Source: Candidatus Krumholzibacteriia bacterium
GTDB taxonomy: Bacteria; Krumholzibacteriota; Krumholzibacteriia; JAJRXK01
Length of the DNA: 64,000 nucleotides
Reading direction: 5' to 3'
Assembly (NCBI GenBank): GCA_041484665.1
Contig: JBGPIA010000002.1
Coordinates: 42,045-106,044, forward strand
The position numbers were made by a program, and so were the translations under genes. Below are positions 10,482 to 49,694 of the stretch, in pieces (within the stretch, counting starts at the first letter, position 1; each line of letters begins with the position of its first letter). The notes beneath the pieces were generated by a model. It did not search any database and was not told the origin of the DNA. It was given only the letters and a program-made list of their open reading frames with translations.

Positions 10482-10487
10482 GTTTCG

Positions 10488-10517
10488 TTGACACCCGCGC
10501 GCGACCGCTGGTAGGGT
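10488..10517 (+). promoter_or_regulatory. Putative sigma-70-type promoter of the BMC operon (TTGACA-N18-TAGGGT)
   Basis: TTGACA at 10488-10493; TAGGGT at 10512-10517; ~85-nt GC-rich leader before the BMC-H start. Confidence 0.4.
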
Positions 10518-10600
10518 GCCTTTGTGCGTGCAGCCGCGCGCGCCCGCGCGGGCCGGCGTCACGCCAGCGGTCGCTCATCAGGCAAGGAGCAAGTACGGCG

Positions 10601-10891: not shown

Positions 10892-10912
10892 CAGCGCGGG
10901 CAGGAACGACCC

Positions 10913-11200: not shown

Positions 11201-11297
11201 TCTGCAGCGCGACGGCACTCCGGGCGGGCGCCGCGCCGTCGACCGGTCTCCTCCCGCCGGCGCCCGGCGCCCGCGGACGCAAGGGCGGGCAGGCGCC

Positions 11298-12806: not shown

Positions 12807-12846
12807 GCCGCGGCGGGAGCCACCTGCCGTCGGCGACCGGGGGAGC

Positions 12847-14292: not shown

Positions 14293-14646
14293 ATGACCAA
14301 GGCCGACCTGGTCGAAGTGATCGCCGAAGGCACTGGCCTCTCGAAGAAGGACACGGGGGTCGTGGTCGACCTGATCCTCGAGAACATCTGCAAGGCGCTG
14401 TGCGAAGGGGACAAGGTGGAGCTGCGCGGCTTCGGGAGCTTCAAGGTCAAGGAGCGGAGGTCGCGCAAGGCGCGCAACCCGAGAACGGGCGACGGGGTCG
14501 ACGTTCCTTCCAAGCTGGTCCCCTACTTCAAATCGTCCAACGAGCTTAAGATGCTCGTGGACAGCAACGCGGCCCGCGCCGCGGCTGGCCCGCGCGCAGG
14601 CAGAGCCCACGCCGAAAGTGGAAGCGGAAGCGGCGCGGGCTCGTGA
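14293..14646 (+). CDS. HU/IHF-family DNA-binding protein (IHF beta-like) with an Ala/Gly-rich C-terminal tail
   Basis: MTKADLVEVIAEGTGLSKKDTGVVVDLILENICKALCEGDKVELRGFGSFKVKERRSRKARNPRTGDGVDVPSKLVPYFK has the RNPxTG arm motif. Confidence 0.8.
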   Translation: MTKADLVEVIAEGTGLSKKDTGVVVDLILENICKALCEGDKVELRGFGSFKVKERRSRKARNPRTGDGVDVPSKLVPYFKSSNELKMLVDSNAARAAAGPRAGRAHAESGSGSGAGS

Positions 14647-17101: not shown

Positions 17102-17485
17102 ATGACCAAGCCCGTGGGACTGGAGCGTCGCAGGGCCGAGCGCGTCAGCGCCCGTCTCAATCTGAACGTGCACCTGCGCTTGCCCGGATCGGGCGGCTCT
17201 GTGGACGACCTGGAGACCCTCAACGTGAGCAGCTCCGGGGTCTACTTCAAGAGCAGCCGCTTCATCGAGCCGATGACCAAGCTGGCGCTGCGCCTGGAAG
17301 TGCCCACCGAACGCGACGATCCCGACGTCACACGCCCGATCTCCTGCGAGGGGATTGTGGTGCGTACCCTCCCCGAGCAGCCGGACGAGTCCGTGGAGGC
17401 CTACGAGGTCGCGGTCTTCTTCACCACGATCGACGCCGAGAGCCTCCACAACCTGGAGAGCTACATCACCAACCTGCTGGCCTAG
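17102..17485 (+). CDS. PilZ-domain protein (c-di-GMP receptor)
   Basis: RxxxR motif (RRRAERVSAR) and (D/N)xSxxG motif (NVSSSGVYF) at the correct spacing. 127 aa. Confidence 0.75.
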   Translation: MTKPVGLERRRAERVSARLNLNVHLRLPGSGGSVDDLETLNVSSSGVYFKSSRFIEPMTKLALRLEVPTERDDPDVTRPISCEGIVVRTLPEQPDESVEAYEVAVFFTTIDAESLHNLESYITNLLA

Positions 17486-17593: not shown

Positions 17594-19090
17594 GTGGCGC
17601 ATACCCGCGAGCGCTATAGCGGTCGCCTGCTGGTCATCGACGACTCGGTGACGTTCTGCCGCCAATTCCAGCAGCTCCTGGAGCGGCTGGGATACCGCGT
17701 GGACGTAGCCCACGATCCGCGCAAGGGTCTGCAGTTCGTCCTGGCCGAGCCGGTCGATGCCGTGCTGCTCGAGAAGCACCTACCGGGCATGGACGGCTAC
17801 GCCCTGTGCCGCCTGCTCAAGAAGTACCCGCAGACGAGCGGGCTGCCGGTCGTCCTGCTCAGCAACGACGACGCCCTCAGCAGCCGCGTGGAGGGGCTGA
17901 GGGCAGGGGCTGACGAGTACCTGAGCAAGCGTATCTCCCCCGAGGAGCTCGACGGCCGGCTACAGTCGCTGCTGCGCGCGCAACGGCTGCGTGGCCAGAT
18001 CGAGGATCAGCATCAGCAGCTCATGGCCGTGCTGGAGGGACTCTCCGACGGCGTGATCCTGGTCGACCGCGACGGGGTGGCGCAGCTTGCCAACCGGGCC
18101 GCGCTGAGCCTGCTGCGCCTGGACCAGGACATCCTGCGCCTGCGCAGCATGCGTCAGATCCTCTCCACGCTGCGCTTCCCCCAGGCCCTGGCGGACCGGC
18201 TGCTGGCTACGGCCGAGCCGTTCACCGACGAGATCGAGGTGGAGATCGACGGGCAACCGCGCCTGCTGGCGGTGCGGTGCGCCCGGGTCACGCGCGCCGC
18301 TGGACAGGGGCTGCTGACCGTGCTGGTCCTGCAGGACGTCACCGAGCGCCGCGAGACCGAGCGCCTGAAAGCCGACTTCCATTCCATGATCGCCCACGAC
18401 CTGCGCAGCCCGTTGAGCGTGATCCAGGGTTACCTGTCGCTGTTGCTCAAGGAGAAGGCGGGCGCGCTGACGCCGCACCAGGAGGAGTTCCTGTGCAGCG
18501 TCCAGGAGAAGGTGTGGGACGTGAGCCGGCTGCTGGACGATTTCCTCGACATGTCGAAGCTCGACGCGGGCTGCATCGTGCTCGACCGCCGGCCGACCGA
18601 CCTGCGCATGCTGCTGTGCGCGTCGCTGCACGACGTGGCGCTCCTGGCGCGTGACCGGGGACTCACGACGCACCTGCGGATCGCGCCGCCGCTGGATGGA
18701 GCGCAGGTGGTGTGCGACGGCAGCCGCATCAAGCAGGTGCTCCAGAACCTCCTCAGCAACGCCGTGAAGTACAACCGCCTGCACGGCCGCATCGACGTCC
18801 GGGCGCGGCTGGAGGGCAACGAGCTGCTGGTCGAGGTGCAGGACGAAGGCATCGGCGTGCCGCCGGAGAAGCACCAGGAGATCTTCGAGCGCTACGTCCG
18901 GCTCAAGGAGGGGCCCGATGCTCCGGAAGGGCTGGGGCTGGGGCTGTTGATCGTGCGCAAGATCGTCGAGGCGCACGGCGGCCGCTCGGGGGTCCGCAGC
19001 GCCGCCGGCGAGGGCGCCACGTTCTGGTTCACGCTGCCCGCCGAGCTCCCGGCGTGCGAAGTCCCGCTGGAGCCACAGCTCACGGGCTGA
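17594..19090 (+). CDS. Hybrid two-component protein: N-terminal receiver - PAS - HisKA - HATPase_c histidine kinase
   Basis: REC: LLVIDDS...VLLEKHLPGMDGYAL...VVLLS. PAS: LEGLSDGVILVDRDG. H-box: MIAHDLRSPLS. N/G boxes: LLSNAVKYN...GLGLGLLIVRKIVEAHGG. Confidence 0.8.
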   Translation: MAHTRERYSGRLLVIDDSVTFCRQFQQLLERLGYRVDVAHDPRKGLQFVLAEPVDAVLLEKHLPGMDGYALCRLLKKYPQTSGLPVVLLSNDDALSSRVEGLRAGADEYLSKRISPEELDGRLQSLLRAQRLRGQIEDQHQQLMAVLEGLSDGVILVDRDGVAQLANRAALSLLRLDQDILRLRSMRQILSTLRFPQALADRLLATAEPFTDEIEVEIDGQPRLLAVRCARVTRAAGQGLLTVLVLQDVTERRETERLKADFHSMIAHDLRSPLSVIQGYLSLLLKEKAGALTPHQEEFLCSVQEKVWDVSRLLDDFLDMSKLDAGCIVLDRRPTDLRMLLCASLHDVALLARDRGLTTHLRIAPPLDGAQVVCDGSRIKQVLQNLLSNAVKYNRLHGRIDVRARLEGNELLVEVQDEGIGVPPEKHQEIFERYVRLKEGPDAPEGLGLGLLIVRKIVEAHGGRSGVRSAAGEGATFWFTLPAELPACEVPLEPQLTG

Positions 19091-19170
19091 GGGCGCGGGC
19101 GGCGGCAATCCCTTCCCCCGGCGCGGCGCGGGCTGCCGCCCAAGGCTCCCGCTGCGCCCTACGCGCGCCT

Positions 19171-19182
19171 GCAACGCGTTGC
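19171..19182 (+). promoter_or_regulatory. Perfect 12-bp palindrome GCAACGCGTTGC ~30 nt upstream of the flgF sigma-54 element (candidate activator or IHF-region site)
   Basis: Seen directly. Its function is inferred only from position. Confidence 0.25.
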
Positions 19183-19211
19183 GCGGCAGCGAAGTCCGTT
19201 CGCTGAGCCCA

Positions 19212-19227
19212 TGGCACATCAGTTGCC
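19212..19227 (+). promoter_or_regulatory. Sigma-54 (RpoN) -24/-12 promoter upstream of flgF: TGGCAC-N5-TTGCC
   Basis: TGGCACATCAGTTGCC at 19212-19227 matches the TGGCAC-N5-TTGCW consensus. AGGAGGA RBS at 19243-19250. GTG start at 19256. Confidence 0.65.
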
Positions 19228-19255
19228 GATGGCTGCCGGTCGTAGGAGGACGACC

Positions 19256-20065
19256 GTGCTGCGTTCATTGCAAGTCTCCAAGACCGGAATGCTGGCCCAA
19301 GAGGCCCGGCTCGAGGTCATCGCCAACAACCTCGCCAACGCCGCCACCACCGGGTTCAAGCGCCTGATCGCTTCGTACGAGGAGCTGCCCGCGCCCACGA
19401 CTGCGGTGCCGGCGAGGTCGCCCACGCCGGCCGAGGCGCTGGCGGCCGCCACGGGCGGCGCGACGCCCGCCGGGGCGCTGGCCCGGCGGCCAGCGCCACG
19501 CCGCAGCGACGGCCCAGCACTGTTGACGCGCGTGGATCTGCGCCAGGGGGCGCTCGAGCAGACCGGCAACCCCCTGGACCTGGCTGTGTCGGGCGACGGG
19601 TTCTTCGTCGTGCGCGTCGGCTCGGCCGAGCGCTACACGCGCGCGGGCACCTTCCGCCTCGACGCGCAGGGCACGCTGGTGGACGCGCAGGGGCATCCCC
19701 TGGTGGGTGGGGGCGGCCCGATCCAGCTTGCGCCCGGCAGCGTGGCCATCGCGAGCGACGGGACGGTCAGCGTCAACGGCGCCGCGGTCGACCGGCTGCG
19801 GGTGGTGCGCTTCCCGGATCCCACCCACGTCCGTCCGGTGGGAGACAGTTTGTTGGCGCTCCCCGATGGCGAGGCGCCCCAGGACCTCCCGCCGGCCCAG
19901 GCGCAAGTCGCCCAGGGTTTCCTCGAGCGCAGCAACGCAAATCCGGTCCACGAGCTGATCTCATTGATCATGGCGCAGCGCGTCTTCGAAGCCGGCCAGC
20001 GACTGCTGGTCACGACCGACGACTCGTTGAGCCGCGCCATCAACCAGGTGGGCCGCGTCCGCTAG
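19256..20065 (+). CDS. flgF: Flagellar basal-body rod protein FlgF
   Basis: VLRSLQVSKTGMLAQEARLEVIANNLANAATTGFK...; C-terminus ...ERSNANPVHELISLIMAQRVFEA (rod/hook family N- and C-terminal domains). Confidence 0.85.
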   Translation: MLRSLQVSKTGMLAQEARLEVIANNLANAATTGFKRLIASYEELPAPTTAVPARSPTPAEALAAATGGATPAGALARRPAPRRSDGPALLTRVDLRQGALEQTGNPLDLAVSGDGFFVVRVGSAERYTRAGTFRLDAQGTLVDAQGHPLVGGGGPIQLAPGSVAIASDGTVSVNGAAVDRLRVVRFPDPTHVRPVGDSLLALPDGEAPQDLPPAQAQVAQGFLERSNANPVHELISLIMAQRVFEAGQRLLVTTDDSLSRAINQVGRVR

Positions 20066-20091
20066 CGGCCTGCCGCAAGGGGGAGTCGAGC

Positions 20092-20883
20092 ATGCTCCGT
20101 GCGATGTCCACGGCCGCCAGCGGGATGCGCGCCCAGCAGACGCGCATCGACACGATCGCCAACAACCTCGCCAATGCGAACACGGCGGGGTTCAAGGCCA
20201 GCCGCGTGGAGTTCCAGGACCTGCTCTACGAGGATGTCCTGCCCGCGGGCGGCACGCGGGCCGACGGCAGCGTCGAGCCGGTGCGCATGGAGGTGGGGCA
20301 TGGGGTGCGGCTGGCGGCCTCCACCCGTTCGCTGGGCGAGGGAACGGTGGAGCAGACGGGCAATCCGACGGACTTCGCCATCGAGGGCGATGGCTTCTTC
20401 CAGATCCGTATGCCCGACGGCAGCATCGCCTATTCCCGCGATGGCAGCTTCAAGGTCGACGCCGACCGTAACCTCGTCACCAGCGCCGGATACCGCTTGG
20501 AGCCGGCGATGACCATCCCGCAAGACGCGGTCGAGGTCTCGCTGGCGCGTGACGGGACGGTGAGCGTGCTGCTGGCCGGCCAGAACGACACCCCCCAAGC
20601 CATCGGCCAGCTGGAGCTGGCGCGCTTCGCCAACCCGGCTGGGATGCGCCAGGAGGGCGGCAACCTGATGCGCTCGTCCGCCAACAGTGGCCCGCCGCTC
20701 TTGGGGCAGCCGGGGACCGTTGGGTACGGCGAGACGACCCAGGGCTTCCTGGAGAGGAGCAACGTGCAGGTGGTGGTGGAGCTCGTGGACATGATCACCG
20801 CGCAGCGCGCCTACGAGCTCAACAGCAAGGCGATCCAGGTCGCCGACGAGATGCTCTCCACCGTGAACGGGATCCGGAGGTAG
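20092..20883 (+). CDS. flgG: Flagellar distal rod protein FlgG
   Basis: MLRAMSTAASGMRAQQTRIDTIANNLANANTAGFK...GFLERSNVQVVVELVDMITAQRAYELNSK. Confidence 0.9.
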   Translation: MLRAMSTAASGMRAQQTRIDTIANNLANANTAGFKASRVEFQDLLYEDVLPAGGTRADGSVEPVRMEVGHGVRLAASTRSLGEGTVEQTGNPTDFAIEGDGFFQIRMPDGSIAYSRDGSFKVDADRNLVTSAGYRLEPAMTIPQDAVEVSLARDGTVSVLLAGQNDTPQAIGQLELARFANPAGMRQEGGNLMRSSANSGPPLLGQPGTVGYGETTQGFLERSNVQVVVELVDMITAQRAYELNSKAIQVADEMLSTVNGIRR

Positions 20884-20886
20884 CCG

Positions 20887-21933
20887 GTGCGTACGCTGCA
20901 AGGGCTGGTGCTGGTGCTCGCGGTCGCGGGGGGAACCTCGCGCGCACCGGCGCAGGGGGCCGCGCCCGGCGCGCCGGCGCAGATCACGCTGCGCGCGCAG
21001 GCGGTCGTCCAGGGGCCGGATGTGCGGCTGACCGACCTGGTGGAGGAACGCCTGCCCGCGGCCTGGGCGCAGCTCGCGATCGCCCCGGCCCCGCCCGCCG
21101 GCCAGAGCATGGAGATCTCCCAGGCGCGCGTGCGGCGGACGCTCGCGCTGGGCGCGGTCGCGTCGCCACCCGCGGTGCGCGGCGCCGCGAGCTGCCGCGT
21201 GCGCAATGACGCAGCCTTGGCCGACGACGGCGCCTTGACGGGGAGCCTTCACGAGCTGCTCGACGCCCTGCCGCTGCCCGCCGGCGCGCTCGGCCAACGC
21301 TTCCAGGTCACCTCGATGCCCAGCCTCGTGGCTGTGGCCGGCAAGCTCTGCGCCCGACTGCAGGGCGACGCCCCGCTGGTGGGGCCGGGCAGCGTGCGCG
21401 TGGAGTTCCTGCGCGGTGGCGCGATGCTCGTGGCCGCCCACGTCGGCGTGGTGCGGGAGCTGCGCGCGGTGGTCTGCACCGCGGCCCGCTCGCTGCCGGC
21501 CGGCACGGCGCTTTCGCCCAGCGATGTCGTCCTCGACACCCTGTGGATCGACCGCCCCGCGCTCTGGGAGCAGGCGCTGCGCCCGCCGCATGCGCCCGGC
21601 ATCACGACGGCGCACGCCGTCGCGGCAGGCGAGGTGCTGCAGTCGGGTAGCCTGCGGCGCACGCCGCTGGTCGTGCGTGGCGCGCCGCTCGAGTGGGTAG
21701 TCTGGCGCGGCGCGTTGCTCGTAGTCGTGCACGCCACCGCGCGGGAGAGCGGCGCGTTGGGCGACTGGGTATGGGTCGAGAGTCCCTTCAACCGCAAGCT
21801 CGCCCGCGTGCAGGTGACGGGCCCGGGCCGAGTGGGAGATCCCCTGCCCGCTGCCTGCGAGCTGGCCCGCGCCCACAGCGGGCCCAACCCAGCGGCGGGC
21901 ACGTCGGACGCTGCACCAGGAGAATTGCCGTGA
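20887..21933 (+). CDS. flgA: Flagellar P-ring assembly chaperone FlgA (long, Ala-rich N-terminal region)
   Basis: Signal peptide. The C-terminal ChapFlgA/SAF-like region is GEVLQSGSLRRTPLVVRGAPLEWVVWRGALLVVVHATARESGALGDWVWVESPFNRKLARVQVTG. Confidence 0.7.
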   Translation: MRTLQGLVLVLAVAGGTSRAPAQGAAPGAPAQITLRAQAVVQGPDVRLTDLVEERLPAAWAQLAIAPAPPAGQSMEISQARVRRTLALGAVASPPAVRGAASCRVRNDAALADDGALTGSLHELLDALPLPAGALGQRFQVTSMPSLVAVAGKLCARLQGDAPLVGPGSVRVEFLRGGAMLVAAHVGVVRELRAVVCTAARSLPAGTALSPSDVVLDTLWIDRPALWEQALRPPHAPGITTAHAVAAGEVLQSGSLRRTPLVVRGAPLEWVVWRGALLVVVHATARESGALGDWVWVESPFNRKLARVQVTGPGRVGDPLPAACELARAHSGPNPAAGTSDAAPGELP

Positions 21934-22550
21934 GCGCCACCACCAAACTCTCGCTCCGCCACCGCGCGCCCGCGTGCACCGCGCTGCTGGCTCTGGCCTG
22001 CGCCGTCGCGGCGCTGCCCGCCGCCGCGCGCGCCGTGCAGCCGCTCATCGACCTGGGCACTGGGCGCGGACTCTTCCACGACGTCAAGGCCGTCGAGGTC
22101 GGGGACATCGTCACGATCGTCATCGAGGAGTCGGCGACGGCCGACACGCGCGCCACCACCGATACCAACAACAAGACCGAGGTATCGGGCGGTCCTGGCC
22201 TCGGGCTGCTCGACCTGGTGCCGAAGTGGGGGCTGGACAGCGAGAACAAGTACAAGGCCGACGGCAAGAGCACGCGCGGGGGCAGCCTCAGCGCGCGCAT
22301 CAGCGCCCGGGTGGTCGAGGCGCTCTCCAACGGCCTGCTGCGCATCGAGGGCACGCGGCTGGTGGAGGTCAACAACGAGAAGCAGCTGATCAGCCTCACC
22401 GGGCTGATCCGCACCCGGGACCTCCGCGCCGACAACACGATCGCCTCGACCTACGTGGCCGACGCGCAGATCCACTATAGCGGCCGCGGGCCCATTACCA
22501 ACGCCCACGAGCCCGGCCTGTTCACGCGCATCGTGAACTGGGTCTTCTAG
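21930..22550 (+). CDS. flgH: Flagellar L-ring lipoprotein FlgH
   Basis: Lipobox LLALAC. ...DIVTIVIEESATADTRATTDTNNKTEVS...LLRIEGTRLVEVNNEKQLISLTGLIRTRDL... Confidence 0.85.
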   Translation: MSATTKLSLRHRAPACTALLALACAVAALPAAARAVQPLIDLGTGRGLFHDVKAVEVGDIVTIVIEESATADTRATTDTNNKTEVSGGPGLGLLDLVPKWGLDSENKYKADGKSTRGGSLSARISARVVEALSNGLLRIEGTRLVEVNNEKQLISLTGLIRTRDLRADNTIASTYVADAQIHYSGRGPITNAHEPGLFTRIVNWVF

Positions 22551-22560
22551 GAGGACGACG

Positions 22561-23682
22561 TTGACCCGCACGCTCAAGATGCGAGCGGCCTTTGTGCTGG
22601 CCGGCGCGTCGCTCTTGCTGGCGTCCGCCGCCGGCGTGGCGCTCGCCGACCGCATCAAGGACATCGCCGCGTTCCAGGGGGACCGCCCGCTGCCGCTGGT
22701 GGGCTACGGTCTAGTGGTGGGCCTCTCGGGGACGGGCGACGGTGGGGGGTCGCAGTTCACCAGCCAGAGCCTGGCGGCGATGCTCGAGCAGCTGGGGCTT
22801 ACCGTGGACCCGGCGCGGCTGCGCGCGCGCAATGTGGCAGCGGTGATCGTGACCTGCGATCTCTGGCCGGGCGTCAACGAGGAGACCGCCGTGGACGTGG
22901 CGGTGGCCTCCATCGGCGACGCCAGCAGCCTGCAGGGCGGTACCCTGCTCATGACTCCGATGCGTGGGCCCGACGGGGATGTCTACGTCGTGGCGCAGGG
23001 AGCGGTCTCCATCGGCGGCTACAACGCCGAGGGGGGCGCCAACAACCGCATCCAGAAGAACCACAGCACCGCCGGCCAGGTCCCCTCCGGGGGACGGGTC
23101 GCCCGGCGGGCGCTCGGCTACGAGATCTTGGCCGGGATGGTTCGCCTGGCGCTGCACCACCCCGACCTCAACACCGCCCAGCGCATCGCCGAGTGCGTGA
23201 ACGGCCGGTTCACCGGCGCAGCGCTGGCCCAGGACGCGGGCACCGTGCAGCTGAACGTGCCCGTGGCCTACGCCGCGAACCCGGTGGCGTTCCTGGCCGA
23301 GGTGGGGGAGCTGCGCGCCGAACCCGACGCGCGCGCCCGCGTCGTGATCAACGAGAAAACCGGGACGATCGTCGTGGGTGCCGGCGTCACCCTGGGCGAG
23401 GCTGCGCTGGCCCACGGCAGCCTCAGCATCGAGATCCGCACGCAGTACGGTGTGAGCCAGCCCAACTCGTTCAATGAGAGCGGCAAGACGGTCGTGGTGC
23501 CCGACGTGCAGACCTCCGTGGAGGAGGGCGCGGCGCACGTCATGCGGGTAGGGGCCTCGACCACGATCAACGACGTGGTCAACGTGCTCAACGAGATGGG
23601 CGCTACACCGCGCGACATCATCGCGATTCTCGAGGCGCTGCGCGCCAGTGGCGCGCTGCAGGCGGAGCTGGTGGTGCTGTGA
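22561..23682 (+). CDS. flgI: Flagellar P-ring protein FlgI
   Basis: Signal peptide, then DRIKDIAAFQGDRPLPLVGYGLVVGLSGTGDG. AGGAGGA RBS 5 nt before TTG 22561. Alternative ATG at 22579. Confidence 0.88.
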   Translation: MTRTLKMRAAFVLAGASLLLASAAGVALADRIKDIAAFQGDRPLPLVGYGLVVGLSGTGDGGGSQFTSQSLAAMLEQLGLTVDPARLRARNVAAVIVTCDLWPGVNEETAVDVAVASIGDASSLQGGTLLMTPMRGPDGDVYVVAQGAVSIGGYNAEGGANNRIQKNHSTAGQVPSGGRVARRALGYEILAGMVRLALHHPDLNTAQRIAECVNGRFTGAALAQDAGTVQLNVPVAYAANPVAFLAEVGELRAEPDARARVVINEKTGTIVVGAGVTLGEAALAHGSLSIEIRTQYGVSQPNSFNESGKTVVVPDVQTSVEEGAAHVMRVGASTTINDVVNVLNEMGATPRDIIAILEALRASGALQAELVVL

Positions 23683-24242
23683 GCCCGCCGCCGATGCACG
23701 GCCTGTGCTTGCCGGCGGGCGCGCCCGGCGCCGCCCCAGGCCCCGGGCCCTCCGCGGTCCGCGCCGTGGGCGCCGCGGCGAATGCAGAGGTGCGCGGCGG
23801 GCCGCCGGCGCCGGTGGACCCGCGCCTGCACGCCGCAGCCCAGGACTTCGAGGGGCTGCTGCTGAACCTGCTGCTGTCGGCCATGCGTCAGACCGTTCCG
23901 CGCGGCGCGCTGTTTGGCAATAGCAACGAGCTGCGCATGTACGAGCAATTGCGCGACGAGGATCTCTCCGCCGGGATGGCCCGCGCGGGCGGGCTGGGTC
24001 TGGCACCGCTCATCGAGCAGCAGCTGGCCGGCCAGCCCGCTGCCGCGCAGCAGCTACGCGTGGCGCTGGCCGCCGCGCACGACGCAGGACGGCGGTCGTT
24101 GGTCCTGGATGCCGCGGGGCGCAGCCCCGCGCTGGCGCCCGCCCCCGCGGTGGGCGCGCCGGCGCTGTCGGCGGCTGCGCTCGCGCTTGCGCCCGACCCG
24201 GACCCAGACCAGGACGCGCCCGGAGCGGATGCGCCATGGTAG
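23679..24242 (+). CDS. flgJ: FlgJ-like rod-binding protein (N-terminal Rod_binding domain only; no muramidase domain)
   Basis: AAAQDFEGLLLNLLLSAMRQTVPRGALFGNSNELRMYEQL matches the FlgJ N-terminal rod-binding motif. 187 aa. Confidence 0.6.
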   Translation: MSPPPMHGLCLPAGAPGAAPGPGPSAVRAVGAAANAEVRGGPPAPVDPRLHAAAQDFEGLLLNLLLSAMRQTVPRGALFGNSNELRMYEQLRDEDLSAGMARAGGLGLAPLIEQQLAGQPAAAQQLRVALAAAHDAGRRSLVLDAAGRSPALAPAPAVGAPALSAAALALAPDPDPDQDAPGADAPW

Positions 24243-24745
24243 CCCCGTCGCCTTTGGCGCTGGACGCGCTGCTGGCCGCCACCGAGGACGAGACCCGCGC
24301 CTTCGCCGGCTTGTTGCGCCTGGCTCACCGGCAGCGCCGCTACATGGTGCGCCAGGACGTCCGGCGGCTGGCCACGGTCGCCGAGGCGATCGCCGCCCGC
24401 GTGCTGCGGGCGCGGGAAGTCGCGGCGCGGCGGCAGGCCGCGCTGCAGGAGATAGCGGCCGGACTGGGCCGCCCGCCCCACGAGATCGAGCTTCAGCAGC
24501 TGGCGCCGGGGGCCGAAAACCCTCAGCGGGTCCGCTTGGAGGCCGCTCTGCGCCGGCTGTCCGAGGTGGGTGGGCGGCTCTACCGGGCGAACACGCAGAA
24601 TCACCTGCTCGCCCGCTTCTCCCTGGACCTGCTCGCCGAGCAGCAGCGCCTGGTGCTGGGGGAGACCGGTGCAGCAGGCCACTACGATTGCAGCGGTGCG
24701 GCGACGCGCCCCGCCGCCCGGGGCGCCATCGACGGGAGGGCCTAG
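24236..24745 (+). CDS. FlgN-like flagellar export chaperone (all-helical, Gln/Leu-rich)
   Basis: The position immediately upstream of flgK/flgL matches the Bacillus flgN-flgK-flgL arrangement. The helical-repeat composition matches, but there are no strong motifs. Confidence 0.4.
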   Translation: MVAPSPLALDALLAATEDETRAFAGLLRLAHRQRRYMVRQDVRRLATVAEAIAARVLRAREVAARRQAALQEIAAGLGRPPHEIELQQLAPGAENPQRVRLEAALRRLSEVGGRLYRANTQNHLLARFSLDLLAEQQRLVLGETGAAGHYDCSGAATRPAARGAIDGRA

Positions 24746-24746
24746 C

Positions 24747-26129
24747 GTGCTGGGAGCCAGCCTGTTCGAGATCATGGACGTGGGCATCAGCGGCATGTTC
24801 GCCAGCGGGTTGGCCACGGGTCTGCTCAACCACAACATCGCCAACGCCAACACGCCGGGGTACTCGCGGCAGCGCCTGCAGATCTCCGCCGCCCATCCGT
24901 TGCGCACGCTCGTGGGATCGCTGGGGCGCGGCGTCGAGATCACGGGCGTGAACCGCGTCACCGACGACTTCCTGCAACGCCAGCTCCTGGAGCAGACCTC
25001 GGCGCTGGGCACCTACTCTGCCATCAATGGCTCGCTCTCCTCGGTGGAGGAGATCATGGGGTCGGTGCAGGACGACCGCATCGGCGGCGCGATGTCGGCC
25101 TTCTTCAACGCCTGGTCTGACCTCTCGACCCCGCCCGTGGACGCCGCCGCTAAACAGTCGGTGGTGAACGCGGCGGACGCGCTCGCGCTGCAGCTGCGTG
25201 AGGTCGATACCGGGCTCAAGCAGGTCATCCAGCAGACGCGCGACGCGGTGGCCGGGAAAGTCAACGACGTCAACCGCCTGCTCACCCAGGTCGGCGTCTT
25301 CAACCAGCGCATCCTCGAGCAGAGCTCCGCGGGCTCGCCCCCCAACGACCTGCTCGACCAGCGCGACCAGGTCATCGCCGAACTCTCCCAGCAGATGCGC
25401 CTGCGGGTGCTCCCGCGCGGTGACGGCTCCGTCGACGTCGTGATGGAGGGCCGCACCGTCGTGACGCGCGACCAGGTCACGCCACTACGGCTGGTCTCCA
25501 CGATCGAGTCCAACGGGAGCACCACGCTCGGAGTGCGCGTCGGGAGCGCCGAGGGCCAGCCCGTGACCACCGTGCAAGGGGAGATCGCGGGCCTGCTGCG
25601 CGTGCACAACGATGGTCTGGCACGGATGCAGCAGGGGCTCGACGACCTGGCGCAGCGGCTGATCAGCGGCGTGAACGCACTGCAGCGCCAGGGCCGCGTG
25701 CCCGGCGGGGCAGGCGTGGACCTCTTCGAGGGCACGGGTGCGGGGGACATCGCGGTGCGCAAGGAGGTGGCCGACGACGCTTCCCTGATCGCCACCGGAC
25801 GCAGCGGCGAGCCGGGAGACAACTCCATCGCCCTGGAAATCGCCCAGCTGGGCGATGTGGCGGACGCTTCGGATGGCCTCTCCCTCCACGAGCGGTACAA
25901 CAAGGTGTTGGTGGACCTGGCGTCGCAGCGCAGCACATTCTCGACGCTGGCGGACGCGCAACGCAACATCGTCCAGGGCGTCTCGAGCCGGCTGGAGAGC
26001 GTGCGTGGCGTGAGCATCGATGAGGAGACGGCCGACCTCATCCGCTTCCAGAAGTCCTTCGAGGCCAACGCGCGCGTGATCAGCGCCGTCAACGAGATGC
26101 TCGACACGATCATCAACCAGATGATCTGA
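24747..26129 (+). CDS. flgK: Flagellar hook-associated protein 1, FlgK
   Basis: VLGASLFEIMDVGISGMFASGLATGLLNHNIANANTPGYSRQRL...; C-terminus ...ADLIRFQKSFEANARVISAVNEMLDTIINQMI. GGGAGGG RBS. Confidence 0.88.
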   Translation: MLGASLFEIMDVGISGMFASGLATGLLNHNIANANTPGYSRQRLQISAAHPLRTLVGSLGRGVEITGVNRVTDDFLQRQLLEQTSALGTYSAINGSLSSVEEIMGSVQDDRIGGAMSAFFNAWSDLSTPPVDAAAKQSVVNAADALALQLREVDTGLKQVIQQTRDAVAGKVNDVNRLLTQVGVFNQRILEQSSAGSPPNDLLDQRDQVIAELSQQMRLRVLPRGDGSVDVVMEGRTVVTRDQVTPLRLVSTIESNGSTTLGVRVGSAEGQPVTTVQGEIAGLLRVHNDGLARMQQGLDDLAQRLISGVNALQRQGRVPGGAGVDLFEGTGAGDIAVRKEVADDASLIATGRSGEPGDNSIALEIAQLGDVADASDGLSLHERYNKVLVDLASQRSTFSTLADAQRNIVQGVSSRLESVRGVSIDEETADLIRFQKSFEANARVISAVNEMLDTIINQMI

Positions 26130-26163
26130 CGGCGCCCCGCGGCGCAGGCAGGCGAGAGAACCG

Positions 26164-27690
26164 ATGCGGATCACGCAGTCCCAATTGGCGCAGCAGGCGG
26201 TCTTCGACATCGGCCAGGCGCTCAGCCGTCTGACCGAGTACCGGCTGCAGCTCTCCTCCCAGCGGCGGATCAACAGCTTCGCCGACGATCCGCGCGGCGT
26301 CGGTGCCGCGCAGCGCTACCGCATCCTCACCTCGAGCAACGACCAGTACCTGCGCAACGCGTCCAGCGCGACGACCTTCCTCGATGCCACGGACAGCGCC
26401 CTGCAGCAGATGGCCGACGCCGTCAGTGGTCTGCGCGAGCTGGTGCTGCGCCAGACGGGACCGGTGGCCAACGATCAGACGCGCTCGGCGGCCGCCGGAG
26501 AGGCGGCGCAGCTGCGCGACCAGGTGCTGGCGATCGTCAACCAGACCGTCGAGGGCGGCTACCTGTTCGGCGGCTTCCGCACCCGCAACGCACCATTCGT
26601 GCTGCAGGGCGGTCAGGTGACCTACGCCGGGGACGACGGCGTCCAGATGGTCCAGATCGGACCGACGCTGCGCGTGATGGCAAACCTGCCGGGCAGCGCG
26701 CTGCTGGGCAGCGACCACGCGGCGCTGTCGGGCAGCGTCGACCTGCGGCCGCGGCTGGCCGGCACGACGCTCCTGACTTCGATGGGCGGCGGTGCGGGGT
26801 TCTCCGGAGGCTCCCTCCACGTTACCGACGGCCTGGGCGCTGGCGCCGACATCAACTTGAGCGGAGCGGCCACGGTGCAGGACGTGCTGGACGCCTTCAA
26901 CGGCTCCGGCCTGGCCGTGACGGCCCGCATCTCCGACGATGAGACCGGGATTACGCTGGAGGGCAGCGGGTCGCTCACGGTGGCCGAGGTGGCGGGAGGC
27001 AGCGCTGCCCAGCAACTGGGGCTGCTGGGCACCACATCCAGCGGAGCGCTGGTCGGGCGCGACGTCCGCGCCGCGCTCACGCTGGCCACCCCCTGGGCGC
27101 AGATGCGGGCGCTGGACGGCAAGTCGCTCGGGACGCTGCGCATCATCATCGGTGGCGTCGCAACCGACGTCGATCTGAGCGCAGCGGCCAACCTGGGCGA
27201 TGCGCGCAACGCCATCCGGGCGCTGAATCCCGACATGGACCTGCAGATCGACCGCGGCGCGGTGCGCCTGGTCTACGCCCAGGCCAAACCGTTCCAGGTG
27301 TCCAGCCCCAGCGGCGACACCACGGCGGATGCCCTGGGCGTGGTGGGCAACGCGACCCCCACGCGCCTGTTCGGAGCGTTCGCGGACGTGATCGCCGCGC
27401 TGCAATCCGGCGACGTGTCCGCTCTCCGGCAGACGCTCGCCGAGATCGAGGACGTGCACGCCGGGTTGTTGCGTCAGGATGTGTCGATCGGCGCGCATCA
27501 GAACCTCGTGGCGAACGCCGGCCAGCTGCTGCGCGCCCGCAACGAGTCGCTGCAGCTGCGCCGCAGCTCCATTGAGGACGCCGATCTGGTGGACGCTGCC
27601 ACGAATGCGTCGTTCGCGGAGGCCGCCTATCAAGCGGCGCTGGCCGCCAGCTCGCGCATCTTCAACCTGTCCCTGGCCAGCTACCTCTAG
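26164..27690 (+). CDS. flgL: Flagellar hook-associated protein 3, FlgL (flagellin-like termini)
   Basis: MRITQSQLAQQAVFDIGQALSRLTEYRLQLSSQRRINSFADDP...; C-terminus ...AYQAALAASSRIFNLSLASYL. Confidence 0.85.
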   Translation: MRITQSQLAQQAVFDIGQALSRLTEYRLQLSSQRRINSFADDPRGVGAAQRYRILTSSNDQYLRNASSATTFLDATDSALQQMADAVSGLRELVLRQTGPVANDQTRSAAAGEAAQLRDQVLAIVNQTVEGGYLFGGFRTRNAPFVLQGGQVTYAGDDGVQMVQIGPTLRVMANLPGSALLGSDHAALSGSVDLRPRLAGTTLLTSMGGGAGFSGGSLHVTDGLGAGADINLSGAATVQDVLDAFNGSGLAVTARISDDETGITLEGSGSLTVAEVAGGSAAQQLGLLGTTSSGALVGRDVRAALTLATPWAQMRALDGKSLGTLRIIIGGVATDVDLSAAANLGDARNAIRALNPDMDLQIDRGAVRLVYAQAKPFQVSSPSGDTTADALGVVGNATPTRLFGAFADVIAALQSGDVSALRQTLAEIEDVHAGLLRQDVSIGAHQNLVANAGQLLRARNESLQLRRSSIEDADLVDAATNASFAEAAYQAALAASSRIFNLSLASYL

Positions 27691-27717
27691 GCGGCGCTTC
27701 TAGAGCGAAAGGACGCC

Positions 27718-28206
27718 ATGCGCATCGAGACGCTGCGCTTTGGAACACTGGAGATCGATCCGGCTGTGCTGATCACGCTGCCGTCGGGCCTGATCGGCTT
27801 GCCGCAGCGCAAGCGCTTCGTGGTGCTCGAGCTGGAGGGTGGCGCGCCGCTTGGCTGGCTGCAGTGCGTCGACGACCCGTCGTTCGGCGTGCCGGTGGCC
27901 GATCCCGGGGTCTTCCGTGCCGACTACCGCATCGCAGTCGCGGCGGAGGAGGTCGCCGAGATCACACTCGACACCGTCGAGGACGCCGCGATCCTGATCG
28001 TGACGACCATCGCGCCCGGTGGCACGCAGGTCACGGGCAACCTGCGCGCGCCCATCCTGATCAACGCGCACAAGCGCCTCGGGCGCCAGGTGGTGCTCGA
28101 CCGCCCCGACCTGGAGTTCCGCGTGCCCGTGGACCCGGTGCTGTTCGCCGCCGCCAGCGGCCGGTTCGAGCCGAGCCTCGCCGCCGCGCCGGCCGCCGCA
28201 CGCTAG
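27718..28206 (+). CDS. fliW: Flagellar assembly factor FliW (CsrA antagonist)
   Basis: MRIETLRFGTLEIDPAVLITLPSGLIGLPQRKRFVVLELE matches the FliW N-terminus. Confidence 0.88.
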   Translation: MRIETLRFGTLEIDPAVLITLPSGLIGLPQRKRFVVLELEGGAPLGWLQCVDDPSFGVPVADPGVFRADYRIAVAAEEVAEITLDTVEDAAILIVTTIAPGGTQVTGNLRAPILINAHKRLGRQVVLDRPDLEFRVPVDPVLFAAASGRFEPSLAAAPAAAR

Positions 28207-28242
28207 CCCCAGCCCCCGCGCACCCGCGACAGGGAGGTCGTG

Positions 28243-28521
28243 GTGCTCGTCCTGAGTCGCAAGCGCAACGAGAAGATCATGATCGGCGACTCGATCACGA
28301 TCGTCGTGCTCGACGTCCACGGCGACCAGGTGCAACTGGGAATCGACGCGCCGCGGGAGATCCCTGTCCACCGCTACGAGATCTACCAGACGATCCGCCG
28401 CGTCACGGAGGAGGCGGCGCGCTCGGCGCGGGAGGATCTGGAGCGGCTCAAGCCGAAGGGACCCGACACGCCCGCCGCGCCACCGTCTTTGGCCGACGAC
28501 TCCGCGCCGGGGGAGCGCTAG
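28243..28521 (+). CDS. csrA: Carbon storage regulator CsrA
   Basis: (M)[47 protein letters not shown] is canonical CsrA. The alternative GTG at 28240 has poor RBS spacing. Confidence 0.9.
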
Positions 28522-37860: not shown

Positions 37861-39264
37861 ATGTCCGAGAAATACACGATCCTCATCTGCGACGACGAGG
37901 CGACCATCCGCACCTCGCTGCGCGAAGCGCTCGAGGGGCAGGGCTACCAGGTGCTCGAAACGGGCGATGGCGCTGGGGCACTGGCGAGCTTGCGGGAGGC
38001 CCGGCCGGATCTGATGCTGCTGGATCTGAAGCTGCCCGACACCACGGGCGTCGAGCTGCTGCGCACATTGCGCGGCGACGGCTACGCGTCCCCCGTGATC
38101 CTGATGACCGCCTATGGGGACATGCCCACGGCCGTGGAGGCCATGCGGCTGGGCGCGTACGACTTCGTCCAGAAGCCCTACAGCTTGGCGGACATGAAGC
38201 TGAAGGTGAAGGCTGCCCTCAAAGTCCATGAGCGGCAGGAAGTTGCCCGTTCGAAAGCAGGCAGGGCCACAGCGCGCGAAGGACGCTATCTTTCGCTGCT
38301 GCGCCTCTCACCGGGCCTCGCCGAGGTCGTTGAGCGGATCGACAAGGTGGGGCGCAGCCGAGCGGGCAACGAGGTGTCGGTGCTCATCCAGGGTGAGAGC
38401 GGCTCGGGCAAGGAGCTCGTGGCGCGCGCCATCCACGAGGTGAGCCTGCCCGGCGAGCCCTTCATGGAGATCAACTGCGCCGCCGTCCCCGAGGCGCTGC
38501 TGGAAAGCGAGTTGTTCGGCCATGAGAAGGGCGCCTTCACCGACGCGCGCGCGGCCAAGGAGGGATTGTTCGAGCTGGCGGGCCAGGGGACGATCTTCCT
38601 CGACGAGATCGGTGAAATGGGGGTGACCCTGCAGAGCCGCCTGCTGCGCGTGATCGAGAACCGGCGCTTCCGCCGCGTGGGCGGCAAACAGGACCACGAG
38701 GTGCGGGCCCGCATCGTCGCGGCCACCAACCGCGAGCTCCAGCGCGCCATCGAGGATGGCATCTTCCGCAACGACCTCTACTACCGTCTGCAGGTGATCG
38801 AGATCCACATCCCGCCCCTACGCGAGCGGGCGGCCGACATCCCGGCGCTCACGAATATCTTCATCGCGGCCTTCAACGAGGAGCTGGGCCTCGCGTGCAA
38901 GCCGGCCAGCGCTGCGCTGTGCGAGATCCTCCAGACCTATCCGTGGCCGGGCAACGTCCGCGAGCTGCGCAACATGATCCGGCGGATCATGATCCTGGAG
39001 GAGCCCCCTGAGATCCTGCCCGTCCACCTGCCGCGCCACGTCCAGATCGGCGAGAACCCGCGGTCGCGAGCCGGCGGTGGCCTCGAGCGCATCGGTCGCG
39101 AGCTGCTGCCGCTGGCCGAGGTGGAACGCATCCACCTCGTGCACACGCTCGCCTCGGTGGACAACAACAAGAGCAAGGCGGCGCGCATCCTGGGCATCAG
39201 CCGCCAGACGCTCCGCGAGAAGCTGAAGGCCTACCAGGCAAGCGCCGGGGCGGACGAGGACTGA
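37861..39264 (+). CDS. Sigma-54-dependent response regulator (REC - AAA+ sigma-54 activator - Fis HTH), NtrC/FleR/FlgR-like
   Basis: REC: ILICDDE...LMLLDLKLPDTTG. Walker A: GESGSGKELVARAIH. GAFTDA (GAFTGA-like). ESELFGHEKGAFT. C-terminal HTH: AARILGISRQTLREKLK. Confidence 0.88.
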   Translation: MSEKYTILICDDEATIRTSLREALEGQGYQVLETGDGAGALASLREARPDLMLLDLKLPDTTGVELLRTLRGDGYASPVILMTAYGDMPTAVEAMRLGAYDFVQKPYSLADMKLKVKAALKVHERQEVARSKAGRATAREGRYLSLLRLSPGLAEVVERIDKVGRSRAGNEVSVLIQGESGSGKELVARAIHEVSLPGEPFMEINCAAVPEALLESELFGHEKGAFTDARAAKEGLFELAGQGTIFLDEIGEMGVTLQSRLLRVIENRRFRRVGGKQDHEVRARIVAATNRELQRAIEDGIFRNDLYYRLQVIEIHIPPLRERAADIPALTNIFIAAFNEELGLACKPASAALCEILQTYPWPGNVRELRNMIRRIMILEEPPEILPVHLPRHVQIGENPRSRAGGGLERIGRELLPLAEVERIHLVHTLASVDNNKSKAARILGISRQTLREKLKAYQASAGADED

Positions 39265-39544: not shown

Positions 39545-39560
39545 TGGCATTGCTCTTGCG
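39545..39560 (+). promoter_or_regulatory. Sigma-54 -24/-12 promoter: TGGCAT-N5-TTGCG
   Basis: TGGCATTGCTCTTGCG at 39545-39560. It lies immediately upstream of the secreted-protein / histidine kinase / NtrC-type regulator / flgB operon. The ATG at 39579 would leave only a ~8-nt leader, so the true start may lie downstream. Confidence 0.55.
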
Positions 39561-41005: not shown

Positions 41006-41019
41006 CGGCAGGAGGCGCG

Positions 41020-41784
41020 ATGGCACAAGGACTCCTGCTTCCCCTGCCGTCCGGTGCGCCGCCGGCGCCTTCGCCGGAGCTCGCCCTGGTGCTCAGCGGC
41101 GCGTTGCACAGCAGTCGCAACCTCGTCATGGCGATGCGCGGCTACGCCGAGCTGATCCGCAAGCGCGACGACGCGGTGGACCGCCATGCCGAATGGGCGG
41201 ACAAGATCATCCATCAGCTCGATCGGCTCAACGAGCTCTATACGCGCGTGTCGGCGCTGTCGGCGCCGCCCTCGGCCTGGCGTCCGGTGGCGGTGGAGCT
41301 GCTGCTGCGCGGCGCCGAGACGCAGGCGCGCCAGCGCTTCGCCGGCGGTCGGAGCGACGTGGGAATGCGGCTGCGCGTGGCTGGCGCGGCGTGCCTCCAC
41401 GGCGACGCGCAGGAGCTCACGCGCTCGCTCTCGGCGGTGCTGGAGAACGCGCTGGAAGCCTCGCCCGCGGGCGCGGCCATCGCCGTGGAGGCGGTGGCCG
41501 ACGCGGCCGGCCGCCTGCATCTAGCCGTCGAGGACCAGGGCAGCGGGCTCACGCCAACGCAGCTGGAGCGCGCCGGCCAGCCCTTCTACACGACCAAGCC
41601 CGACCGGCTGGGGCTGGGGCTGTTCCTGGCCCGCTCGATCCTGGGCCGCTACGGGCTTGGTTTGACCATCGAGAACCGCGCCGTGGGCGGCGCGCGCGTG
41701 GTCATCACCGCGGTCGCCCTTGCGACCACACCGGCCACGTTCGCGAGCGCCGGGACCTCGGATCTTCAGGGAGGAACCCAATGA
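41020..41784 (+). CDS. Soluble histidine kinase (HisKA-like + HATPase_c)
   Basis: GGCAGGAGG RBS. ...AVLENALEASPAGAAIAVEAV...DQGSGLTPTQLERAGQPFYTTKPDRLGLGLFLARSILGRYG (N/G boxes). Confidence 0.7.
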   Translation: MAQGLLLPLPSGAPPAPSPELALVLSGALHSSRNLVMAMRGYAELIRKRDDAVDRHAEWADKIIHQLDRLNELYTRVSALSAPPSAWRPVAVELLLRGAETQARQRFAGGRSDVGMRLRVAGAACLHGDAQELTRSLSAVLENALEASPAGAAIAVEAVADAAGRLHLAVEDQGSGLTPTQLERAGQPFYTTKPDRLGLGLFLARSILGRYGLGLTIENRAVGGARVVITAVALATTPATFASAGTSDLQGGTQ

Positions 41785-43154
41785 GAGAACGCCGCCGCAT
41801 CCTGGTCATCGAGGACGAGAAGGCGACGCAGGACTTGTTGCGCAGCGAGCTCGAGACGCGCTACGCCGTGGCGTGCGCCGGCAATGGGGAGGAGGGACTC
41901 GAGCTCCTGCAGCGAGACGGGGCCGACATCGTCTTGCTGGACCTCAGCCTGCCGGGGATGCACGGGTTGCAGGTGCTGCAGGAGATAGCGCGGCGGATGC
42001 CCCAGCCACCTGCCGTGGTGGTGATCACCGCCGACGAGCAGCTCTCCTCGGCCGTGGAGGCGGTGCGCGCCGGCGCCTACGATTACCTCACCAAGCCATT
42101 CCCCCTCGACCGGCTGTGCACGGCCATCGAGCGGGCCGACGAGCGCCTCCGCCTGCTGCGCGAAAACGTCTCGCTGCGGCAGACGCTCTCCGCCGCTCGG
42201 CAGTTCCGCGGACTGCTCGGCAACAGCCAACCCATGCAGAGCCTCAAACGCGATGTCGAGAAGATCGCGGACTCGCGCGGGACCGTGCTGCTCACCGGTG
42301 AGTCCGGAACGGGCAAGGAGCTGGTAGCGCGCGCCGTCCACGAGCTCTCCATGCGCCGCAACGGTCCGTACATCCGGATCAACTGCTCGGCGGTGCCCGA
42401 AGGGCTGCTGGAGAGCGAGCTGTTCGGGCACGAGAAGGGATCGTTCACCAGCGCCATCGCCCGCCGCGAGGGCATGTTCGAGCTGGCCGACAGCGGCACG
42501 CTGCTGCTGGACGAGATCAGCGAGATCAACACCGGGATGCAGTCGCGGCTGTTGCGCGTGCTGCAGGAGCGGGAGTTCATGCGCGTGGGCGGCAAGGTCC
42601 CCATCAAGGTGGACGTGCGCGTAATTGCCACCACCAACAAGGAGCTCAAGGCCCTGGTGCGCGAGGGGAAGTTCAAGGACGACCTGTATTACCGCCTCAA
42701 CGTCATCCCGTTGCACATCTGTCCGCTGCGCGAGCGGGTGGAGGACATCCCGGTCCTGGCACGCTTCTTCATCGAGCGCGCCTGCGCGGAGAACGGGCGG
42801 TCGCTCATGGCGCTCACGCCGGCGGCGATGAAGACGCTCTGCGCCCACTCGTGGCCGGGCAACGTGCGCGAGCTGGAGAACAGCCTGGAGCGCACGGTGA
42901 TCCTCAACGACCGCGACGCGATCGACGTGAGCGATCTGCACCTGGACACCGACGCGCTCTTCCCACCGCCGTCGACGCGCCTGGACAAGGACGACCTGAC
43001 GCTGCGCGAGCTGGAGAAGGAGCTGATCCTGCGTCGGCTGTCCATCACCGGTGGAAACCGCACCCGGGCCGCGCAGCTCCTGGGGATCAGCGTGCGCACT
43101 CTGCGCAACAAGATCAATCTGTACCGCGGTGAGGGGATCCGCATCCCCGGCTGA
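41781..43154 (+). CDS. Second sigma-54-dependent response regulator (REC - AAA+ - HTH), immediately upstream of flgB
   Basis: ILVIEDE...IVLLDLSLPGMHG; GESGTGKELVARAVH; ESELFGHEKGSFTSA; ...AAQLLGISVRTLRNKI. AGGGAGG RBS. Confidence 0.88.
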   Translation: MRERRRILVIEDEKATQDLLRSELETRYAVACAGNGEEGLELLQRDGADIVLLDLSLPGMHGLQVLQEIARRMPQPPAVVVITADEQLSSAVEAVRAGAYDYLTKPFPLDRLCTAIERADERLRLLRENVSLRQTLSAARQFRGLLGNSQPMQSLKRDVEKIADSRGTVLLTGESGTGKELVARAVHELSMRRNGPYIRINCSAVPEGLLESELFGHEKGSFTSAIARREGMFELADSGTLLLDEISEINTGMQSRLLRVLQEREFMRVGGKVPIKVDVRVIATTNKELKALVREGKFKDDLYYRLNVIPLHICPLRERVEDIPVLARFFIERACAENGRSLMALTPAAMKTLCAHSWPGNVRELENSLERTVILNDRDAIDVSDLHLDTDALFPPPSTRLDKDDLTLRELEKELILRRLSITGGNRTRAAQLLGISVRTLRNKINLYRGEGIRIPG

Positions 43155-49554: not shown

Positions 49555-49694
49555 CGCGTGCCTGCGGCCGCGCGCGGTCGGACCGGGCCGGCGCGTCAAC
49601 TCCATCCTTCCCAACCACTTGCGCGAGGTCGAACTCGCGCTGACCCGTGGCATGTGCGTTGCGCTGGGCCGCCCGGGCCCTGGGAGGCGCACGC

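Follow-up and report, generated by a model that had tools for sequence, protein, structure and literature searches.

The DNA analysed here is a 64,000-nt stretch from a Candidatus Krumholzibacteriia bacterium, called the window below. It holds a flagellar supercluster of 71% GC, in which flgF is preceded by a 165-nt spacer that separates it from the gene of a hybrid sensor kinase. The analysis concerns a putative sigma-54 (RpoN) promoter in this spacer, the sequence elements around it and the operon that it would serve. The spacer and the start of flgF carry the following features.

19171..19185, + strand: promoter-proximal element GCAACGCGTTGCGCG, at about -67 to -53, which includes a palindrome at 19171-19182
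19187..19205, + strand: inverted repeat CAGCGAA-GTCCG-TTCGCTG, ending 6 nt before TGGCAC
19212..19227, + strand: candidate sigma-54 -24/-12 element TGGCACATCAGTTGCC, called from consensus match, position weight matrix (PWM) and orthologous boxes
19237..19256, + strand: leader hairpin CGGTCGT-AGGAGG-ACGACCG, with a perfect 7-bp stem that spans the whole predicted 5' untranslated region

The initial annotation had described a consensus box (TGGCAC-N5-TTGCC), a ribosome-binding site, the flgF start and an upstream palindrome, and each of them was re-derived at the position it gave. TGGCAC occupies 19212-19217, ATCAG 19218-19222 and TTGCC 19223-19227, so that the GG of the -24 element falls on 19213-14 and the GC of the -12 element on 19225-26. 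When compared with TGGCAC-N5-TTGC(W), TGGCACATCAGTTGC matches at 10 of 10 positions, with the invariant GG and GC exactly 10 nt apart; the -11 position is C rather than A or T, as at all boxes of this lineage. The box has the same orientation as flgF, and the C of its -12 GC lies 30 nt before the GTG at 19256. This gives a predicted 18-nt leader with a Shine-Dalgarno sequence, transcription being predicted to start at about 19238. No sigma-70-like site, strict sigma-28 pattern or terminator stood out in scans of the spacer and the operon interior. A reading of GCAAC...CGT as an extracytoplasmic function type promoter was rejected because of its 21-nt spacer.

The statistical weight of the box depends on how much of its context is considered. 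With an approximate sigma-54 matrix based on the consensus in the literature, the flgF box scores 15.7 bits. The exact pattern TGGCAC-N5-TTGC occurs once in the window versus 0.16 expected, and at least one copy is present in 14 of 100 shuffles; taken alone, the match is not significant window-wide, and it is significant in context. The slightly relaxed TGGCAY-N5-TTGC occurs three times versus 0.19 expected, a count that none of the 100 shuffles reaches, and all three boxes lie on the + strand, with the start codon of a flagellar-cluster gene 20-33 nt downstream.

Comparison with relatives points in the same direction. The closest ones outside the species belong to a single lineage (L005/L171/L172) whose FlgF is 61% identical, the next nearest reaching 46%. 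In the 61% lineage the -24/-12 box is the best-conserved non-coding block: CCATGGCACATC-N-GTTGCCG is identical at 19 of 20 positions and its distance from the start is unchanged, whereas the flanks have diverged, and the orthologous box, ATGGCACATCCGTTGCC, scores 15.5 bits at the same distance. Furthermore, GGCAC-N6-TTGC is found 50-52 nt from the flgF start in L006/L173 (46%), L167 (42%) and L170 (43%), lineages that share PilZ or kinase synteny with the window. The GG-N10-GC box is conserved in four related lineages. The spacers of the same-species contigs L001-L004 are identical, as are those of L173 and L006, and hence uninformative; a search with kinase homologues for contigs spanning the spacer returned none above 42% identity. 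Matches listed in the FlgF scans of genomes and metagenomes were at most 40% identical and served as a survey and control set, not for base-level footprinting. In this survey of 163 flgF loci from many phyla, which covered 250 nt upstream of flgF (stretches of about 280 nt), a box of at least 12 bits was present in 63 of the 163 loci among the matches listed, versus 1 of 163 on the reverse-strand control.

These data bear on the possibility that the flgF box is a chance match, with flgF expression owed to read-through of the kinase transcript or to a promoter of another kind. Random 64-kb sequences reach the PWM score of the box in about 30% of trials, and L168 and L169 (FlgF 42-44% identical) use a sigma-28-type promoter before flgF. 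Nevertheless, the conservation of the box across four lineages, the enrichment of TGGCAY-N5-TTGC boxes in the window, the single control-strand hit in the 163-locus survey and the lack of any sigma-70-like or sigma-28-like site in the spacer make this explanation very improbable. In L168 (130-165) and L169 (2383-2412) the sigma-28-type promoter, CTAAAGTCC-N11/12-GCCGATAA/G with a downstream half given as GCCGATA, replaces the sigma-54 box, an instance of one operon under different sigma factors across neighbouring lineages.

The position of the translation start is also relevant, as an ATG at 19211, inside the -24 box, would turn the apparent promoter into coding sequence. This ATG is in frame here, and IMG annotates a protein of 284 aa. 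However, its counterpart is out of frame in L005, homologues begin at the position of GTG 19256, AGGAGG (19244-19249) lies 6 nt before that GTG, and the 15 extra codons show lower GC at third codon positions (10/15), weaker codon bias and two AGG codons; the upstream start is extremely improbable. Judged from these sequence features, the true flgF start is GTG 19256 (269 aa), in agreement with the NCBI/Logan gene call of 269 aa and with homologue N-termini that align from residue 1, and the ribosome-binding site and flgF start named in the initial annotation are upheld. The annotation thus gains a flgF start fixed at 269 aa instead of 284 aa, along with the flgN gene listed below.

Two further sigma-54 boxes and two activator genes are found elsewhere in the cluster.

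39545..39559, + strand: second sigma-54 box TGGCATTGCTCTTGC, 20 nt before ATG 39579 of a secreted tetratricopeptide repeat (TPR) gene
49648..49662, + strand: third sigma-54 box TGGCATGTGCGTTGC, 33 nt before ATG 49695 of an FlbB-like gene
37861..39264, + strand: NtrC-type activator 1 (receiver, sigma-54 AAA+ and HTH_8 domains), with its cognate kinase upstream at 35621-37855
41781..43154, + strand: NtrC-type activator 2 (receiver, sigma-54 AAA+ and HTH_8 domains), with a kinase upstream and flgB 40 nt downstream

The TPR gene is followed by a small open reading frame (ORF), kinase 2, activator 2 and flgB onward. The FlbB-like gene heads fliK-flgD-flgE, and upstream of its box lie CAACCACTTGCGCG (49612-49625) and a hairpin (49621-49640). 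The two boxes suggest a two-tier sigma-54 cascade. Since the flgF box is conserved, two more boxes lie in the cluster and two genes for bacterial enhancer-binding proteins are present with their cognate kinases, the flgF site is very probably a sigma-54 type promoter that serves an 11-gene operon, with the proximal element and the leader as proposed below. The initial promoter assignment is borne out by the same evidence, namely the GG-N10-GC conservation in four lineages, the two additional boxes and the two activators with kinases.

The putative operon extends over 19256..28521 on the + strand and comprises the following genes.

19256-20065, + strand: flgF (Pfam)
20092-20883, + strand: flgG (Pfam)
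20887-21933, + strand: flgA (Pfam)
21930-22550, + strand: flgH (Pfam)
22561-23682, + strand: flgI (Pfam)
23679-24242, + strand: flgJ, rod-binding domain only, 187 aa, without the muramidase domain
24236-24745, + strand: flgN, overlapping flgJ and abutting flgK
24747-26129, + strand: flgK (Pfam)
26164-27690, + strand: flgL (Pfam)
27718-28206, + strand: fliW (Pfam FliW, E 3.6e-30)
28243-28521, + strand: csrA (Pfam CsrA, E 1.6e-23)

The intergenic gaps range from -7 to +36 nt, the order from flgF to flgL is the same in L006, and the gene after csrA is convergent. On the basis of this tight spacing and synteny, a single 9.3-kb transcript from flgF to csrA is the most likely arrangement. No internal sigma-54, sigma-28 or sigma-70 pattern stands out within the operon. 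The initial annotation had listed the block as flgF-flgG-flgAHI-flgJ-flgKL-fliW-csrA; these names are correct, and flgN (24236-24745) had been overlooked. Its view that the promoter drives the whole block is compatible with the gaps and the synteny, which are the grounds for it, and internal promoters may still contribute. The features of a FliW-CsrA partner-switch module are present: fliW and csrA are adjacent, and the flagellin gene has a leader that bears GGA motifs.

Upstream of the box, the initial annotation had singled out the perfect 12-bp palindrome GCAACGCGTTGC at 19171-19182, 29 nt from TGGCAC. As a special feature it does not hold up: the 64 kb contain 73 perfect 12-bp palindromes, which corresponds to a chance of about 17% for a 165-nt spacer, so the perfect symmetry carries little weight, and the palindrome centre CGCG reads CCAC in the L005 lineage. 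What recurs instead is CAAC-N3-TTGCGCG (CAACNNNTTGCGCG), with exactly two perfect copies in the window, one here and one at 49612 (CAACCACTTGCGCG), before the FlbB-like sigma-54 box; both copies lie 22-26 nt before a sigma-54 box. L005 and L171 carry GCAACCACTTGCG(T/C)G aligned to the element, and the L171 version, GCAACCACTTGCGCG, is aligned by MAFFT to GCAACGCGTTGCGCG and followed by a 14-nt gap. The estimated number of exact chance matches in the window is 0.04 for a motif that was defined after seeing the data, and the recurrence is suggestive (roughly P 0.001-0.01).

A palindrome without function, arisen by chance in a GC-rich spacer or forming part of hairpins that end the kinase transcript, would be consistent with the abundance of such palindromes, the unconserved centre, the 14-nt shift in spacing to the promoter, a spacer folding not significantly better than that of shuffles (z -0.27) and the failure to find the element in L006, L167 and L170. 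Against this stand the exact recurrence of the motif at another sigma-54 promoter of the window (0.04 expected, post hoc), its recurrence in the L005-lineage ortholog and the lack of a T-run after the palindrome, which is therefore not a canonical terminator. Taken together, a functionless palindrome is rather unlikely.

Two kinds of protein-binding site then come into consideration. NtrC-type enhancers are dyad-symmetric, usually occur as at least two sites about 80-150 bp upstream and are common to co-regulated promoters. The element is dyad-symmetric and recurs at 49612 and in L005/L171, but it is single, variable in spacing and absent at 39545. When it is viewed as a site for integration host factor (IHF), the core CAA-N4-TTG is matched in all three copies, whereas the WAT part and the A/T-rich flank are absent and no enhancer was located. 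The genes upstream of flgF that matter in this context are the following.

14293..14646, + strand: IHF-like (HU/IHF family) gene (Pfam Bac_DNA_binding, E 4.7e-29), about 5 kb upstream of flgF
17102-17485: PilZ protein (Pfam)
17594-19090: hybrid receiver-PAS histidine kinase (Pfam)

In the listed order, an RNase R-like gene (Pfam) lies between the IHF-like gene and the PilZ gene. The IHF-like protein scores 96/88 bits on the IHF-beta/alpha models versus 69/64 on the HU models, below the curated cut-offs, and a homologue adjoins PilZ-flgF in L170 (1215-1502), so that the linkage is seen in two distant lineages. The element could accordingly be an IHF-like bending site, with the real enhancer farther upstream, either within 19090-19160 or inside the 3'-terminal part of the kinase gene. 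It lies in the zone usual for IHF sites in sigma-54 promoters (PMC3897727), its invariant core is that of the IHF consensus WATCAANNNNTTR (PMC5963220), linkage of the IHF-like gene with PilZ-flgF is seen both in this window and in L170, and L006 carries AATCACTTCTTGG at about -75 to -63. In contrast, the missing WAT part and A/T-rich flank, a conserved tail (TTGCGCG) that falls outside the IHF consensus, the L171 dyad arms GCGCAA/TTGCGC, which suit a homodimeric helix-turn-helix protein, the third sigma-54 promoter without the element, the lack of an identified upstream enhancer at the flgF spacer and the sub-threshold scores of the IHF-like protein make a bending site unlikely. With low confidence, we lean towards CAAC-N3-TTGCGCG being a protein-binding site, for an activator rather than for an IHF-like protein. 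The enhancer-dependent control that was initially proposed agrees with the presence of the two NtrC-type activator genes; the palindrome, single and at about -67 to -53, is atypical for an enhancer.

The inverted repeat at 19187..19205 is absent from the L005 lineage, where the 14-nt gap is located. At two of the three boxes, a perfect 7-bp hairpin (19187-19205 and 49621-49640) stops 6-7 nt short of TGGCA, with a chance of about 0.014 per site, and the two hairpin sequences are alike (GCGAAGTC.../GCGAGGTC...). A hairpin abutting the -24 box was discarded as a general rule, no enrichment being found (4 of 57 other lineages versus 22 of 449 controls). Among the three promoter upstream regions, the shared 10-mers were only GC-rich low-complexity matches, and a shared 12-mer, ACGCG(C/T)GCCTGC, was within chance (about 0.5 expected by estimate). 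The repeat GGCGGCA-N26-TGCCGCC (19100-19139, found by eye) was rejected as a distal enhancer, as such GC repeats are too common.

The leader hairpin is the second element with a possible regulatory role. Its loop holds the Shine-Dalgarno sequence (19244-19249), the last base of its stem is the G of the GTG start, and its folding energy is -10.6 kcal/mol (z -2.2). L005 (168-188) has CGGGCAG-GAGGAGA-CTGCCCG in the same register (-13.7 kcal/mol), where compensatory changes in both arms at stem pairs 4, 6 and 7 leave every pair intact. Among the genuine gene starts of the window, only that of flgF has such a hairpin; in L167, L170 and L006 the flgF hairpin is weak or absent, and neither spacer nor leader matched an RNA family in Rfam. 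A CsrA site typically consists of a GGA in a short hairpin loop that overlaps the Shine-Dalgarno sequence, usually with a second GGA 10-63 nt away; here a second GGA is present at 19286-19288, within a Gly codon. The hairpin is a plausible candidate CsrA site, or else may act as a 5'-terminal stabiliser or a translational gate. In C. jejuni, the leaders bound by CsrA include those of RpoN-class genes, e.g. flgI, flgA and flaB (PMC4894983).

Several observations weigh against the overall interpretation. Random Markov 64-kb windows reach at least 15.6 bits in 9 of 30 trials, and only the L005/L171/L172 lineage is near enough for base-level footprinting. rpoN was not found in the 64-kb window, which is only the part of the genome that was read. 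The activator loops deviate from GAFTGA at the fifth residue, reading GAFTDA in activator 1 (residue 224) and GSFTSA in activator 2 (residue 220). As for the element, there is only one site, nearer than typical enhancers; its distance to TGGCA varies (26, 22 and 12 nt, with copies at about -67 to -39); and it was found neither at the third sigma-54 promoter (39545) nor in the more distant lineages L006, L167 and L170. Finally, the scan for terminators and internal promoters gave nothing either way for a single 9.3-kb transcript.

The analysis shows the sequence elements, with their conservation and recurrence, and the gene content; RpoN dependence, the start site, the acting activator, a single transcript and all protein-DNA contacts belong to a mechanism that we infer. 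In it, sigma-54-containing RNA polymerase would recognise the GG at 19213-14 and the GC at 19225-26 and form a closed complex. Transcription from about 19238 would proceed only once an AAA+ enhancer-binding protein remodels this complex. This protein is most likely to be found among the cluster's two NtrC-type response regulators, activator 2 being a guess for the rod/hook class. The transcript would most likely cover flgF-G-A-H-I-J-N-K-L-fliW-csrA, which would assign rod, rings and hook-filament junction, along with the FliW-CsrA switch, to the sigma-54 'middle' class, with fliC on its own sigma-28-like promoter. The palindrome would be the local form of CAAC-N3-TTGCGCG, which two of the window's three sigma-54 promoters carry about 50-65 nt ahead of the start. 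Its most likely ligand would be a class-specific activator or, alternatively, an IHF-like bending protein. The leader hairpin probably sets the translation or stability of flgF mRNA. In a more far-reaching reading, CsrA, whose gene closes this operon and which FliW would release or sequester depending on flagellin export, would act back on rod and ring translation, and perhaps also on the stability of its own polycistronic mRNA. If true, CsrA feedback at the flgF leader would couple filament status to basal-body synthesis. The joint proposition, in which CAAC-N3-TTGCGCG is a promoter-proximal activator site that marks the 'middle' class and the flgF leader is a CsrA operator, is put forward tentatively and is quite unlikely to hold as a whole.

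The surroundings of the operon offer further observations. A PilZ-domain protein and/or a hybrid receiver-PAS kinase also directly precedes flgF in L006, L167 and L170; these two proteins are probably flagellar regulators, and it may be asked whether they form a cyclic di-GMP brake. After csrA, the convergent genes are one ORF without family assignment, followed by fliS, fliD, flaG and fliC; farther downstream lie flgM, kinase 1/activator 1, the secreted TPR gene, kinase 2/activator 2, and flgB through flhF. A sigma-28-like promoter, CAAGTCC-N11-GCCGATAT (32124-32148, - strand), unique in the window, precedes fliC, whose leader (31995-32120, - strand) contains several GGA motifs and a CTTC-AAGGAG-GAAG Shine-Dalgarno loop. 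The gene for the anti-sigma-28 factor FlgM lies at 35199-35636 (+ strand). At the second sigma-54 box, a mere 20 nt separate the -12 C from the TPR start codon, which lacks a Shine-Dalgarno sequence. Within 40219-41100, the TPR stop is at 40619, a GTG at 40616 overlaps this stop and opens a 129-aa ORF in another frame, and the in-frame start codons available to kinase 2 are located either deep within the TPR gene or past 40760. The highest PWM score of the window belongs to TTGGGACGGTGATTGCT (63256-63272, 16.8 bits, with G for C at -23), which falls in the 3'-terminal part of flhA, with the probable flhF start (GTG 63331) about 60 nt downstream; an RpoN site before flhF is also present in V. 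cholerae (PMC3439928). Upstream of the flagellar cluster, a bacterial microcompartment locus (10433-13458) encodes microcompartment shell proteins, EutN/CcmL and an aldehyde dehydrogenase.

That sigma-54 and a two-component activator govern the genes for rod, ring, hook and junction is textbook in Vibrio, Pseudomonas, Campylobacter, Helicobacter and Caulobacter (PMC3930126). The V. cholerae flgF site, TGGCATGCTGCTTGC, is bound in chromatin immunoprecipitation sequencing and RpoN-dependent (PMC3439928). There, flgF(GH) belongs to the class III FlrBC tier and, like here, has a TGGCAY-N5-TTGC box directly before flgF; in both systems further RpoN promoters lie within the cluster (flhF, fliK and flgI in V. 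cholerae), and flagellin-class genes are on another tier. In contrast, V. cholerae has separate flgFGH, flgIJ and flgKL units, each with its own box, whereas the block described here shows no further box and has fliW-csrA appended. The V. cholerae master regulator FlrA lacks a phosphorylatable receiver, whereas both activators of this cluster are response regulators with kinases. The FlgR of epsilon-proteobacteria works without a DNA-binding domain, unlike the two activators here, which keep HTH_8. Apart from this, FleSR/RpoN of Pseudomonas and FlgSR/RpoN of Campylobacter and Helicobacter combine a two-component activator with sigma-54 for the rod, ring, hook and junction genes, as here (PMC3930126).

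The adjacency of fliW and csrA after flgK-flgL resembles the FliW-CsrA-flagellin switch of B. subtilis and C. jejuni, and, as in such systems, the flagellin leader has GGA motifs and a Shine-Dalgarno sequence in a small loop. In B. subtilis, flgM-flgN-flgK-flgL-fliW-csrA is read from sigma-D/sigma-A promoters, whereas the FliW-CsrA module here appears as the tail of a sigma-54 rod/ring operon. With respect to promoter architecture, the orp promoters of D. vulgaris have IHF sites at -43 and -79, with activator sites farther upstream at -88 and -131 (PMC3897727). The flgF spacer resembles orp1/orp2 in having a short element at -40 to -80 with a CAA-N4-TT core upstream of the -24/-12 box, and differs from them in that this element is dyad-like and GC-rich, without an A/T-rich part and without an identified distal enhancer.

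Collectively, the comparison suggests that three sigma-54 promoters form a compact layout together with two two-component activators. The local twists are fliW-csrA at the operon tail, a recurring promoter-proximal element and a covarying leader hairpin; the leader could link CsrA-FliW to early structural genes, while neither element nor leader alters what is generally understood of flagellar regulation. A deep-branching, uncultivated lineage of high GC content would thereby join those with the familiar sigma-54 'middle-class' flagellar tier.

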